Assembly: GCA_963745705.1 (NCBI GenBank)
Contig: CAVUYL010000011.1
Span: 8,535-72,534 of the forward strand
Direction of reading: 5' to 3'
Length of the DNA stretch: 64,000 bases
Source of the DNA: an uncultured Gammaproteobacteria bacterium
GTDB lineage: Bacteria > Pseudomonadota > Gammaproteobacteria > Steroidobacterales > Steroidobacteraceae
In this document: positions 51,747 through 55,441 of the stretch, piece after piece
Numbering within the stretch: the first letter of the stretch is position 1
Layout of the letters: the number at the start of each line of letters is the position of its first letter
Translations under genes and position numbers: made by a program
The notes under the pieces: model-generated
Database searches by the model: none
What the model was told of the DNA's origin: nothing
The model's input: the letters and a program-made list of their open reading frames with translations, nothing else

Positions 51747-52250
51747 TCAGTCGACGATTTCATAGGTCGTGGCAAAGATGGGCGTGGAAACGATCCCGAG
51801 ACTGCCGTCGCCATAGTCGACCAGCCATTCGCCCGGAACCCCGCTCAAGCGCGATACCCCATCGGCGAGCAACACCTCGAACGGCACCGCCATGGGCACC
51901 GCCATGATGCGATTCGGCAGGCTGATATAGCGCCCCGACTGGCCGGCGACGGTGGGCGGCACGGGGCGGTATTTGTCGGGAAACCGTGCGCGGGACACAC
52001 GCCAGTGCTCCCCCGCGGTGCCGGTGATGATGGCATCGCCGGGCGCCGCATGCACCTCGCCTTCGGAGGTCTTCACGGTGCAGGCGACCGGCGTGAAGCG
52101 CACGTCGATTTCACGTTCCAGCTTGCGCGCAAAGACGCGCCGCGGATCGGCGCTGATCTCGTTCGAGTAGCCGCGATGCCCGCTCGAACGAAACAAAGGC
52201 ACCTGCCCGGCGTTCACCCTCGTTGCGCCGCCGAAATCAGGCCGCGCCAC
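51747..52250 (-). CDS. PGDYG-domain protein
   Basis: The eponymous motif region GVPGEWLVDYGDGSLGIV. The in-frame GTG at 52217 overlaps the NTPase stop (GTGA); the ATG at 52250 would overlap it by 37 nt. Confidence 0.85.
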   Translation of the reverse strand: MARPDFGGATRVNAGQVPLFRSSGHRGYSNEISADPRRVFARKLEREIDVRFTPVACTVKTSEGEVHAAPGDAIITGTAGEHWRVSRARFPDKYRPVPPTVAGQSGRYISLPNRIMAVPMAVPFEVLLADGVSRLSGVPGEWLVDYGDGSLGIVSTPIFATTYEIVD

Positions 52251-55200
52251 AGGCGCACATCATGCAACTCCCGCATTGCGGCCGGCAGGGCGTCTATCTT
52301 CGCCGCTGCCTCGCGCAGCAAGAGCGAACTGCGTTGCGGGTCGTTGAGGGCTTGAGCATACAGCGCGGCGGCGAACTCCACCGTTTGCCAATAGTCGCCG
52401 TGATTTTTAGCTGCAAGCTCGCGCTGAAATGTCACTACCGGAGCGATGACTTGGGCGGCTTCGGCGGTGCGACCCTGGCGGGAAATCGCCATGGCAAGCC
52501 AAGTCGAGAGTTCTCCGACGTCGCGCCGATCGGAGACGGCCTCGATCGGCGTACGTTTGCGCGCTTCCATCGATGCGCGTTCGGCATGTTCGGCGGCTGC
52601 GAAGTCGCCAAGCATGTAGTCGGCACGTCCCTCGACATGGTAGCCGACGAACAGGCTGATGTATTTCTGACTTTCCTCGAGACCGCCGTTCGGCTTCGTG
52701 GCCTCCATGTCGCGTGCATTGTTGCGGGCCAAACGCTGGGCGTCGGCGAAATCATCCGCCTCGAAGGCGGTGCCGGCGGCGGGAAGTTGCTGCAGGCCAT
52801 CGAGCATGCTCACCGCCATGCTCCCCGGCGGTTCGCTGCGGCGTAATTTCGCCAGGAATGGTTCTCCCGACGCGATCGTGGCGGCGGCACCGGCCGCATC
52901 GCCGATCTGCGCCTGGTGGACCGCCGTCTGAGCGACGGCATAACCGTGGATGATGACGAATCCCGTGCCTCCGGCTCCGGCCGCTCTTCCGAAATCATCC
53001 AGACACTTCAAGTACCAAGGGATCGCCTCGCGAACCCGGCCCATCGACCAGAGAGCGTCTCCCACTCCTTGGTGGGCCACTCCCATGTTATTCATGCTCA
53101 CGACGTTCTCTGGATCGAGCGTCAGGAGCGCCTGTCCGATTTGCACTTCGCGTTGGCCACTCTGCAGTGCGTCTTTTGGACTCAGATCGTTGCTAGCGAC
53201 TTGCGCGAGATCCGCTTCGATGATTTGTTCCGCATGCAGGGCAAGGCGGTAGCCCGGCCGTTTCTCGAGCACTTTGTCGGCGATGCCCAATGCGTCCACG
53301 CCGCGGCGACGCGCCTCTTCGTTTCTTCCCAGGTTGGAAAGCGCCGACACGAGCCAGGCGCCGCCCTCTGCGTAATCTGCTGCCATGTCGATGTTCGAAA
53401 GATCACGGGCGCCCAGAGTCTCGGCGAGCCGCATGGCCTGCTCCGCCGTGCGCACGGAGTCGTCGTTCTGATTTGCGGCTTGCTGCTCGAAGGCGATGCG
53501 CACCAGCACTTCGACGTAGGCACGGCGCGCGGCGGCCGAAGCTTTGGGAGCCTCGGCAAGCGGCCGCAAGAGGTCGGCGGCGCGCTTGCCCGCCGCGGGC
53601 CCGGCGGGGTCGTTGTTGTTGTCATATATCTGTGCTTGAACCGAGTAGCCGAGTGCCAGCGCAATGGTCGTGGCCTCCGAGTTATCTCCCTCGCGCCTGA
53701 GGTGTTCGAGCAGTTGCAGCGCTTCCGCATCCGTGGCGCTGCTCGCCTTCAGTTTGCCGACCGAGCGCATCACTCGGGCGTACTGCACCATCGCGAGCGC
53801 GCCGTTGCGGATGGTTTGCGTATCTTTGAGCGCCGGGGGCAACGCGTGAAAATAATCCACCTGCCGCTTGGCGAACTCCCCGATGACGTCCAGGCGTCCG
53901 AAACTTTGCAGCTCGCGGACAAAGTCGTCGGTGAGGTAGCCGAGAAGCTGCTCGGCCTGCATGCGCGCCTGCTCGGACACCGCGCGAGTCTGCCTCGCCT
54001 CGAGTTCGGCGCGGTGGGCTCGCTGCGTGCTGAAATAGGCGAACACGGCTGCGACCAGCGCGCCGATGGCGAGCGCCGTGCAGCCGATGGCGATCTGGCG
54101 GGCGCGCACCAGCGCGCGGCGCGCGGTGAGCTCGCGCGCACCTTGCTCGGCCAGCAGTCGCTCGGTTGCCTCCCTCGACTCTCGCTCGCGGCGCAGATCG
54201 CGGCTGCTCTTGACGACCCCGCACAACACGTCGTGCGTGAGCTCGACGCGGCGCACGTCCAGGCGCTCTTCGATGCGCAACAGCCGGCGGTTGACCAGGG
54301 TTGCCAGCGCATCGGGGGCCGCGCCCACGGCCTGGAAGCGGCTGAGGAGGCGCTCCTCGGCGATGTTTTCGCGGAAGCCGGAAGCGGTCAGGAGCTCATC
54401 CTCGATCACCTGGCGCACCGCCGGCTTCTGGTCGGCGAGCGAGCGTTCATAGAAATTGCTGAGGATACTGGCGTGCGAGCCGGCAAGCAGGTCGAGCGAT
54501 ATCTCGTCGCGCCCTTGGGCGATGCGGGTATCGTTGAGCTCGCGGCAAATGAGGCTGAGCAGCGAGGGCTCGACCTCGGCATGGGCGAGTTCCGCGCCGC
54601 CGGCGACGAAGCGCACGATCGCCGCCGCGACCTCCTCCGTGACCAAGCGCTTGCCCGGCAGCAGCACGGCCGCCAGCGCCTGCTCGCCGGTCATCGGCGC
54701 CAGCCGCAGCCGGTTCTGCGAGATGCTGGGCATCACCTTCTTCAAGCCTTCCAGCGGCGCCAGGTAGTCCTCGCGCAGCGCGACCAGCACGCGGTAGTCG
54801 CCGCGCGCGAAATCGAAGCGCTCCGCTCCTGAATCGTCCTCATCGAGCTTGGCCTCGAGGGATTTGGGCGGTCGGTTCTCGGCCAGATCGGCCAGCTCGT
54901 CGATGAAGCGTGCCGCACGTGCCCGGCCGAACTCATCGCTTTGCGCCAGCGTGAAAATCTCCTCGAACTGGTCGAAGATCAGCAGCGGAATGAGCGTGGC
55001 TCCCGACTCGTCGCGCAGCACGTCGTCGCGATGGTGCAGGAATTCCCACAGCGACTCGCCCTCGACCGCGACCCCGGCTTGAGTCCATTGGCCGGAGCGC
55101 CGCGCGGTGCGGCTGATCGCCTGCTTGATCTGTTCGGCGGGCTCCGGCGATTCCTTGCCGTAGTCGATGCGCACATAGACCGGGCAGTAACCCTGGCTGC

Positions 55201-55441
55201 GCAGGCGCGGCGCGAGCCCGGCGCGTAGGATCGAGGTCTTGCCCAGGCCCGACTGGCCGAACAGCACGGTGAGCAGCTTGCGCTGCACCCGGCGCGCGAG
55301 TTCGGCGACCTCCTCGTCGCGCCCAAAAAAGTATGCGCGGGTTTCCTCCGTGAAGGAGGCCAATCCCAGCCAGGGATTGCGTTCATCGACCGTGGTCGCC
55401 GCGGCATCGCTCGCGGACACGTAGCGCGGCTGCGCGTTCAT
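52214..55441 (-). CDS. membrane-anchored nSTAND-type P-loop NTPase with a long helical-repeat (TPR-like) C-terminal region
   Basis: NPWLGLASFTEETRAYFFGRDEE signature, Walker A GQSGLGKTS (55232-55258) and Walker B LLIFDQFEE. A single TM helix IAIGCTALAIGALVAAVFAYF (54032-54094) is followed by about 600 aa of helical repeats. The ATG at 55441 overlaps the upstream stop (ATGA). Confidence 0.9.
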   Translation of the reverse strand: MNAQPRYVSASDAAATTVDERNPWLGLASFTEETRAYFFGRDEEVAELARRVQRKLLTVLFGQSGLGKTSILRAGLAPRLRSQGYCPVYVRIDYGKESPEPAEQIKQAISRTARRSGQWTQAGVAVEGESLWEFLHHRDDVLRDESGATLIPLLIFDQFEEIFTLAQSDEFGRARAARFIDELADLAENRPPKSLEAKLDEDDSGAERFDFARGDYRVLVALREDYLAPLEGLKKVMPSISQNRLRLAPMTGEQALAAVLLPGKRLVTEEVAAAIVRFVAGGAELAHAEVEPSLLSLICRELNDTRIAQGRDEISLDLLAGSHASILSNFYERSLADQKPAVRQVIEDELLTASGFRENIAEERLLSRFQAVGAAPDALATLVNRRLLRIEERLDVRRVELTHDVLCGVVKSSRDLRRERESREATERLLAEQGARELTARRALVRARQIAIGCTALAIGALVAAVFAYFSTQRAHRAELEARQTRAVSEQARMQAEQLLGYLTDDFVRELQSFGRLDVIGEFAKRQVDYFHALPPALKDTQTIRNGALAMVQYARVMRSVGKLKASSATDAEALQLLEHLRREGDNSEATTIALALGYSVQAQIYDNNNDPAGPAAGKRAADLLRPLAEAPKASAAARRAYVEVLVRIAFEQQAANQNDDSVRTAEQAMRLAETLGARDLSNIDMAADYAEGGAWLVSALSNLGRNEEARRRGVDALGIADKVLEKRPGYRLALHAEQIIEADLAQVASNDLSPKDALQSGQREVQIGQALLTLDPENVVSMNNMGVAHQGVGDALWSMGRVREAIPWYLKCLDDFGRAAGAGGTGFVIIHGYAVAQTAVHQAQIGDAAGAAATIASGEPFLAKLRRSEPPGSMAVSMLDGLQQLPAAGTAFEADDFADAQRLARNNARDMEATKPNGGLEESQKYISLFVGYHVEGRADYMLGDFAAAEHAERASMEARKRTPIEAVSDRRDVGELSTWLAMAISRQGRTAEAAQVIAPVVTFQRELAAKNHGDYWQTVEFAAALYAQALNDPQRSSLLLREAAAKIDALPAAMRELHDVRLWRGLISAAQRG

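Follow-up and report, generated by a model that had tools for sequence, protein, structure and literature searches.

A receptor-like nSTAND1 NTPase with a predicted transmembrane helix and a SIR2-like/TIR partner in an uncultured Steroidobacteraceae bacterium

We analysed a window of 64,000 nucleotides (nt) from an uncultured soil bacterium of the Steroidobacteraceae (Gammaproteobacteria; assembly GCA_963745705.1, contig CAVUYL010000011.1, positions 8,535 to 72,534 of the forward strand), on whose minus strand lies a gene for an nSTAND1 NTPase followed by a predicted transmembrane (TM) helix and a long TPR-like region. We find the locus to be real and intact, one of a very large and uncharacterised family in which a receptor-like nSTAND1 protein is paired with a SIR2-like/TIR protein. 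It is likely, on the sequence features set out below, that the helix crosses the membrane and leaves the TPR domain outside the cytoplasm. The further reading, that this four-gene operon with its two-gene core would be a receptor-like STAND (NLR-type) switch of the nSTAND1 clade sensing variable non-self, we hold with about as much belief as doubt. A first-pass annotation of the window had described the NTPase protein but had missed the coupled SIR2-like/TIR gene, as well as the PGDYG-family and SLATT-like genes downstream.

The receptor-like NTPase and its predicted topology

The NTPase is encoded by a minus-strand open reading frame (ORF) spanning 52214 to 55642, within which we took the ATG at 55441 as the likely start because it overlaps the stop codon of the upstream SIR2-like/TIR gene (ATGA). 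Both the STAND assignment and the two nucleotide-binding motifs proposed in the first-pass annotation were borne out: PF20703 (nSTAND1, Pfam) spans residues 24-433 with an E-value of 2.9e-34 (119.8 bits, cut-off 27.1), and the Walker A (GxxxxGK[ST]) and Walker B (hhhhDxxE) motifs are both intact. Across 62 aligned homologues, Gly62, Lys68, Thr69, Asp157, Glu160 and Glu161 are invariant. Only about 20 residues precede the NTPase module, with no fused N-terminal effector. An AlphaFold2 model built from a 62-sequence alignment gave a predicted local distance difference test (pLDDT) score of about 70 for the NTPase module and above 90 for residues ~510-1075, which are folded entirely as helical hairpins. 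Foldseek matched this tail, about 570 amino acids (aa) long, to TPR superhelices only in the PDB (TSK, APPBP2, Ski3, LGN, APC subunits and OGT, with the periplasmic scaffold of the Campylobacter flagellar motor also among them), as expected from the TPR-like repeat region that had been described from the letters alone. Since the Pfam TPR matches in this region are weak, ‘TPR-like’ is the right description. A sequence search of the PDB with the NTPase returned a designed TPR and nothing else.

Between the two parts, the hydropathy profile contains one peak, IAIGCTALAIGALVAAVFAYF (residues 450-470), with a Kyte-Doolittle 19-residue mean of 2.42 compared with 1.25 for the second-best peak in the protein, so the single, strongly hydrophobic helix of the earlier reading stands. 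The protein is rich in Ala and Leu, and because 51 of 2000 shuffles (2.6%) reach 2.42, hydropathy gives the one sequence by itself only modest significance; what lends the observation weight is conservation. The survey of homologues that had been proposed for this helix found it kept at the same place in 120 close homologues, and nearly every full-length representative at 50% identity (about 100) has a single hydrophobic peak at positions 430-465. Among the close family the helix residues vary while the hydrophobicity persists. The residues that are invariant in the 62 homologues (Ala451, Cys454, Leu457, Ala461 and Ala465) all lie on one helical face, and this small-residue face is compatible with helix-helix packing in a membrane. 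Arg-rich helical segments flank the helix, the N-terminal flank being the more positive. By prediction, the protein thus has the nSTAND1+TM+repeat architecture, with one TM segment between the NTPase and the TPR-like helices.

Because the hydropathy profile shows one membrane-type helix and no further hydrophobic segment that could return the C-terminus to the cytoplasm, the repeat region must lie on the other side of the membrane from the NTPase if the helix spans it. Four in-silico lines favour an N-in/C-out orientation, and the claim of the first-pass annotation that the repeats face the opposite side gains support to this extent, as a prediction. Across 99 representatives, the 15 residues before the uncharged span contain on average 5.78 Lys and Arg residues versus 3.30 after it, with the N-terminal flank carrying more in 86 of the 99 and fewer in one. 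The mean net charge of the flanks is +4.3 on the N-terminal and +1.0 on the C-terminal side, and the uncharged span averages 22 residues. This pattern is the positive-inside signature of a predicted N-in/C-out anchor.

The domains that follow the helix in relatives bear on the same point. An exhaustive search of representatives clustered at 50% identity returned 26,162 relatives at E <= 1e-3, many of which match only query residues ~10-500, with lengths of 900-2359 aa. Beyond the helix these relatives carry WD40, TPR-like, YD/RHS with PDZ, FGE-sulfatase, vWA, PPC or Cytochrome_C554 domains. One of them, P0255, has five CXXCH motifs and a Cytochrome_C554 domain beyond the helix, and its post-helix region is 30% identical, over 97% of the length, to a multihaem cytochrome having a signal peptide; a SIR2_2-TIR_2 gene lies upstream of the P0255 NTPase gene on its 31-kb contig. 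Covalent attachment of haem c is a periplasmic-side process, and the P0255 tail must therefore be exported. A second relative, P0253, has after its helix a PPC domain, which is typical of secreted proteins.

The genome itself offers a parallel. The TIR domain of the partner protein has six paralogues here, 42-50% identical and gapless over 146 residues, four of which are full-length and comprise an N-terminal TIR domain, one TM helix, a ‘SIAVLPF..EYF.DG..EEL’ domain and TPR repeats; up to 14 copies of such TIR-TM-TPR proteins occur in other genomes of the family. These paralogues suggest that a TIR domain inside, one helix and TPR repeats beyond it form a recurring design in these bacteria, and the TIR-TM-TPR proteins look like direct receptors. 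The NTPase's C-terminal region has no paralogue in its own genome, nor is it similar to the TPRs that the TIR-TM-TPR proteins carry.

Several observations weigh against a spanning helix and would suit a different arrangement, in which the hydrophobic segment is a buried oligomerisation helix or a peripheral anchor and the TPR domain is cytoplasmic as in Avs and other STAND sensors. The AlphaFold2 pLDDT falls below 50 for residues 433-504, which cover the helix and its long helical flanks, and the helix is not placed. The C-terminal flank retains about three Arg or Lys per 15 residues, and the 2.6% of shuffles that match the helix in hydropathy point the same way. Canonical WD40 propellers, more typical of cytoplasmic proteins, follow the helix in 20 of 36 long relatives, and where STAND proteins have been characterised, their WD40 and TPR sensors are cytoplasmic. 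For the cytochrome c variant there is one sequence on one contig, and a word-based search with its tail matched only itself and one secreted cytochrome. Such an arrangement nevertheless appears very improbable to us. The residues of the segment vary while its hydrophobicity, uncharged length of about 22 residues and position are kept, which is the pattern of a lipid-facing helix and not of a specific protein interface, and neither the charge bias in 86 of 99 relatives nor the export-requiring post-helix domains (multihaem cytochrome c and PPC) would be expected of a cytoplasmic tail.

Replacement of the putative sensor region

The closest syntenic relative of the locus is found in an MFD soil metagenome-assembled genome (MAG), here L022, which shares with the window 18 kb of collinear sequence that is 92-97% identical in nucleotides outside the block described below. 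The aligned genes encode a P450, an AMP-binding protein, a Zn-peptidase, an LpxL-like protein, the SIR2-like/TIR partner, the N-terminal half of the NTPase, and the PGDYG and SLATT-like proteins. Within this alignment, identity drops at ~54040 and returns at ~52200, and the block is thus bounded where the helix-coding segment ends on its 3′ side and by the NTPase gene's stop codon. At the protein level, identity to L022 is 97.2% over residues 20-445 and 96.7% over the helix region, falling to 61.9% over residues 476-1075. Synonymous divergence (dS) rises from 0.24 in the NTPase part to 1.5 in the tail. From this difference, together with the drop in identity, the sequences indicate that the tail was replaced by recombination and did not diverge in place.

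Across 66 genes, the N- and C-terminal identities to the NTPase protein are loosely correlated (Spearman 0.44). The pairwise ratio of nonsynonymous to synonymous substitution (dN/dS) is 0.05-0.07 for the NTPase part and 0.14-0.30 for the tail, and the tail is less constrained than the NTPase part.

Exchange of the sensor as a cassette fits a role in recognising variable non-self, for example proteins of phages or competitors that arrive in the periplasm. The same allelic swap between near-identical backgrounds is also what might be seen in an inter-bacterial conflict or kin-recognition sensor, whose periplasmic TPR domain would detect competitor effectors (type VI secretion, contact-dependent inhibition or bacteriocins) or self/non-self markers, and not phage. 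A predicted periplasmic location, where many competitor toxins act, and the failure to find the system in phage records agree with such a role. However, no toxin, immunity or secretion-system genes recur beside the locus, and the computed evidence does not separate competitor sensing from phage sensing; we regard this more specific role as improbable.

The SIR2-like/TIR partner and a possible mode of action

The partner gene encodes an N-terminal SIR2-like domain and a C-terminal TIR domain, and its stop codon overlaps the start of the NTPase gene. A hydropathy scan of the partner found no hydrophobic segment. The gene is directly upstream of the NTPase gene in 14 of 14 whole-genome loci and 80 of 80 GTDB-contig loci, in a set of 121 family genomes the full-length partner and the NTPase occur together one-to-one, and the partner is conserved more than the NTPase (75-86% versus 57-68% identity). 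A locus search with the partner alignment returned close Steroidobacteraceae loci only. The AlphaFold2 model of the partner (pLDDT 61) was used solely for fold assignment. Foldseek matched its N-terminal half to ThsA (best), the EfAvs5 SIR2-STAND protein, DSR2 and KomC, and its C-terminal half to the SPARTA TIR, BtpA, AbTir and PdTIR, so that the nearest structures of the partner are defence NADases (ThsA, Avs5 SIR2, DSR2 and the SPARTA TIR).

The catalytic motifs of these folds look different. We compared the TIR residues by HMMER alignment to PdTIR (3h16) and BtpA/TcpB (4lzp, 4c7m). The TIR fold is confirmed, and the column of the catalytic Glu in helix alpha-C (W+4; Glu217 of BtpA, ‘W..RELDGL’) holds Ala or Met in the partner, which on this residue falls outside the canonical TIR NADases; another residue may serve. 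The partner motif reads ‘EWSYAMDRV’ and that of the family ‘FR.EW..A.DR’, with an invariant Asp at W+5, one residue past the Glu column, and this motif is also found in the partner from Paraburkholderia and in the TIR-TM-TPR paralogues. For the SIR2 fold there is support from Pfam and Foldseek. A PDB profile search with the SIR2-like half returned no SIR2 entry and its catalytic residues were compared at motif level only; the positions that we take to correspond to TTNYD and hHG read STTFD and HLFG in the partner, and TMTCD and YMFG in that of Paraburkholderia caribensis. The partner therefore looks catalytically atypical, with the canonical SIR2 and TIR residues apparently substituted.

For topology, ligand, oligomerisation, partner activity and biological role alike, we infer the following scheme. 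The NTPase would reside in the cytoplasm, residues 450-470 would cross the inner membrane once as a type-II anchor, and the 570-residue TPR superhelix would be periplasmic. A periplasmic ligand would bind the TPR domain, and the ligand-induced change would pass via the helix and its coiled-coil flanks to a nucleotide-dependent oligomerisation of the NTPase. The oligomer might then cluster or activate the separately encoded SIR2-like/TIR partner, and in the four-gene form found in this genome the PGDYG and SLATT-like membrane proteins could be the arm that executes the response, for instance by permeabilising the membrane or arresting growth. The putative sensor module is exchanged between strains as a cassette.

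Several results count against this immune scheme, and some of them suit a receptor of the same topology with a non-immune role, signalling an envelope, nutrient or cell-cell cue through a partner that acts as a non-enzymatic adaptor or scaffold. The partner has no canonical TIR Glu and lacks the SIR2 Asn and His at motif level, and its TIR subtype is the cytoplasmic domain of the multi-copy TIR-TM-TPR receptor-like proteins. Selection on both halves of the NTPase gene is purifying, with no overt positive selection on the tail. The loci sit among metabolic genes and outside defence islands: neither defence genes nor mobile elements are enriched in the 135 ORFs that are the nearest neighbours of about 40 loci. 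By Pfam these neighbours belong to ordinary metabolism, and mobile-element genes do not recur among them; only eight PADLOC families matched, in one ORF each, and these are generic (such as DndA/SspA and HTH). No model in PADLOC or NCBIfam matches the NTPase, no NTPase relative was found in phage records, and relatives occur on only 13 of 72,556 plasmids. In the downstream genes, the SLATT_1 match (PF18181; profile positions 7-122 of 122) scores 18.8 bits against a cut-off of 26.3, in seven of the 17 family genomes with a SLATT-like gene that gene lies elsewhere or the genome has no NTPase, and the PGDYG/SLATT-like pair is also present alone in genomes lacking the NTPase.

Other features are difficult to reconcile with a purely signalling role. 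The NTPase is present in 30 of 121 family genomes (25%) and 15 of 40 genera, in one to five copies, some with stops; this patchy presence, the variation in copy number, the broken copies and the allelic replacement of the sensor are typical of conflict genes. The structural neighbours of the partner are all defence effectors, and the SLATT-like protein, of a predicted pore-forming effector class, follows in 46% of loci. We consider the signalling alternative possible, if rather unlikely.

In a wider reading, the locus may belong to a Toll-like signalling layer in which periplasmic repeat sensors signal through one TM helix to a cytoplasmic STAND switch, with a cassette sensor, a SIR2-like/TIR protein that has lost the canonical NADase residues as TIR adaptor and an optional PGDYG/SLATT-like executioner, the adaptor possibly cross-talking, through contacts between TIR domains, with the TIR-TM-TPR receptors present in several copies in the same genome. 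Such a layer may reach from Steroidobacteraceae to many other bacteria, with TPR, WD40, YD, cytochrome c and other sensors; as a whole we regard it as improbable. The likeness to animal Toll-like receptors is an analogy only. They share a solenoid sensor outside, a single TM helix and TIR signalling inside, as do the direct TIR-TM-TPR fusions of this genome, and differ in having no NTPase, an LRR sensor, and a TIR domain fused to the receptor.

Among bacterial systems, Avs/AVAST and bNACHT resemble the locus in combining a STAND NTPase with a C-terminal repeat sensor and NAD-targeting effectors of the SIR2/TIR kind, and the SIR2 part of the partner matches EfAvs5 by fold. They differ in that here the effector is a separate protein and a single TM helix lies between switch and sensor. 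The Avs sensors that have been characterised recognise phage proteins in the cytoplasm. The NTPase is a member of the nSTAND1 clade, with no PADLOC Avs match and no N-terminal fused effector, and falls outside Avs/AVAST; NACHT (PF05729) is absent from its Pfam matches, which sets it apart from bNACHT. A KAP NTPase of the PifA type does not fit either, as the sole hydrophobic segment follows the NTPase module and none lies within the P-loop domain. Thoeris (ThsA SIR2-SLOG and ThsB TIR) likewise combines SIR2-fold and TIR-fold modules, and ThsA is the best structural match of the partner's N-terminal domain. In the partner, however, a single polypeptide carries both folds, a STAND NTPase would govern the pair, and canonical catalytic residues appear substituted. 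PADLOC matches to Thoeris are weak (ThsB, E 1.8e-5; ThsA, 0.008) and there is no SLOG domain, and we do not assign the locus to that system.

To our knowledge, the characterised bacterial STAND/NLR-like immune sensors all read the cytoplasm. The nSTAND1 clade was named among counter-invader systems by Kaur, Iyer, Burroughs and Aravind (eLife 2021, PMC8195603), whose theme includes effectors such as TIR, separately encoded or fused. The NTPase described here is of the same family by an above-cut-off hidden Markov model match, and its layout is not new, having been tabulated in their supplement (‘nSTAND1+TM’ 412 times, ‘nSTAND1+TM+BetaPropeller’ 278 times and ‘nSTAND1+TM+TPR’ 22 times). Their main text has a single mention of nSTAND1, with no discussion of the TM helix or of topology, and the string ‘SIR2+TIR’ is absent from the supplement. 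The PGDYG/SLATT-like extension, the replacement of the sensor cassette and the atypical catalytic motifs of this locus are not described there. This analysis adds the helix-bounded sensor-cassette replacement, the cytochrome c relative as a topological marker and the TIR subtype held in common with the TIR-TM-TPR proteins, along with the apparently degenerate catalytic motifs and the PGDYG/SLATT-like extension.

The same logic has been described for PCTM and receptor-like TIR-ParA systems (bioRxiv preprint of October 2026, 10.64898/2026.10.19.760177), in which a single type-II TM helix joins an NTPase switch in the cytoplasm to a periplasmic sensor that varies, and an effector gene lies upstream of the gene for this ParA-TM-periplasmic sensor protein. 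The systems are predicted to sense periplasmic perturbation; these are predictions only. The sensors there are TPR, pentapeptide or peptidoglycan-binding domains, and the NTPase is of a ParA/SIMIBI GTPase-class fold, whereas here it is a STAND AAA+-like module. Kibby et al. described a class of bNACHT proteins with TM regions, some of which were suggested to recognise intramembrane or periplasmic signals, and Doré et al. predicted periplasmic CLec domains for some NACHT targets of diversity-generating retroelements. We found no experimental test of these predicted TM or periplasmic STAND- or ParA-type sensors in the literature, which also tells against our reading.

If the periplasm-facing reading is true, a STAND sensor of this kind would detect threats or cues before or without genome entry, and bacteria would gain a receptor geometry familiar otherwise from the Toll-like receptors of animals. 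The module of NTPase plus helix is very common (26,162 clusters at 50% identity), so that one result on topology and function would annotate many hypothetical genes. The locus offers handles for this in the natural sensor swap bounded by the TM helix, the degenerate-looking motifs of the partner and the optional PGDYG/SLATT-like arm.

Downstream genes and distribution

In this genome the four genes for the partner, NTPase, PGDYG and SLATT-like proteins are tightly coupled, through the ATGA overlap, a GTGA overlap in which the PGDYG gene opens with a GTG on the NTPase stop codon, and a 1-nt gap between the PGDYG stop and the ATG of the SLATT-like gene (Table 1). Of 63 loci with enough downstream sequence, 31 have PGDYG directly downstream of the NTPase, 29 of them (46% of the 63) with both genes and two with PGDYG alone. 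The SLATT-like protein has four hydrophobic segments by hydropathy, where the SLATT unit has two TM helices, and 30 of 45 members of its family match SLATT_1 individually, all below the Pfam cut-off. The SLATT-like gene is a separable module that is often attached, since it adjoins the NTPase gene in 10 of the 17 family genomes that carry it and lies apart in the other seven. PADLOC has no model for the PGDYG or SLATT-like proteins. A literature search for PGDYG found no mention, and we know of no function for this family.

Table 1. Coordinates of the features described, in window positions unless another contig is given.
Feature	Position	Strand	Details
SIR2-like/TIR partner gene	55438..56823	-	461 aa; SIR2_2 E 1.2e-12 and TIR_2 E 2.4e-17 (Pfam)
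nSTAND1 NTPase - TM helix - TPR-like sensor gene	52214..55441	-	1075 aa
Cytoplasmic nSTAND1 NTPase module (predicted), residues ~20-435	54137..55384	-	PF20703 above cut-off
Walker A	55232-55258	-	GQSGLGKTS, residues 62-70
Walker B	54959-54985	-	LLIFDQFEE, residues 153-161
Single predicted TM helix, residues 450-470	54032..54094	-	Hydropathy 2.42; position conserved in relatives
C-terminal TPR-like superhelix, residues ~510-1075, putative extracytoplasmic sensor	52217..53914	-	~27 helices; AlphaFold2 pLDDT >90
Block replaced relative to L022	52200..54040	-	64-77% nt identity; coincides with the coding region after the TM helix
PGDYG-family gene	51747..52217	-	156 aa; PF14083 E 1.6e-19, 70.6 bits, cut-off 27
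Four-TM SLATT-like protein gene	50708..51745	-	345 aa; sub-threshold SLATT_1, E 0.0017
TIR-TM-TPR paralogues (genome G000)	C10:265487-267802, C10:57458-59605, C28:138261-140327, C13:170895-173549		~690 aa; outside the window
Two truncated TIR-TM-TPR paralogues	C22:5144-6784		Outside the window

A word-indexed search scored 8000 candidates and gave 2433 NTPase homologues at E <= 0.001. The best 120 are 67-97% identical, and the named ones among them are Steroidobacteraceae or gammaproteobacterial MAGs. Broken or stop-bearing NTPase copies occur in genomes G039, G061, G065 and G101. The NTPase is also split over several frames in seven loci (L024, L033, L053, L055, L069, L090 and L095), all from long-read MFD MAGs; sequencing frameshifts are as likely an explanation there as pseudogenes, and these were not counted.

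Two cultured carriers were found. Paraburkholderia caribensis MBA4 has a SIR2-TIR gene and an nSTAND1 gene with the TM helix and a 200-aa tail. Haliscomenobacter hydrossis (pHALHY02; L103, 732-7709) has a split version of the system, in the order SIR2-family gene, a 550-aa NTPase gene overlapping it by 4 bp, and two separate WD40 genes. TPR-S and MAP3K_TRAF_bd genes adjoin the SIR2-TIR/nSTAND1 pair both in P. caribensis MBA4 (L102:1416-2858) and on the contig of P0255 (L104:1-3101), and this association, seen in two unrelated carriers, may recur. A further TIR_2-domain gene (412 aa; L009:1-518) lies 6 kb upstream of the pair on a 3.5-Mb MAG contig. In the window, a segment of about 520 bp at 50190-50708, immediately beyond the SLATT-like gene, is missing from L022, which is otherwise collinear here, and a 180-aa ORF with no family match (50208..50750, minus strand) overlaps it.

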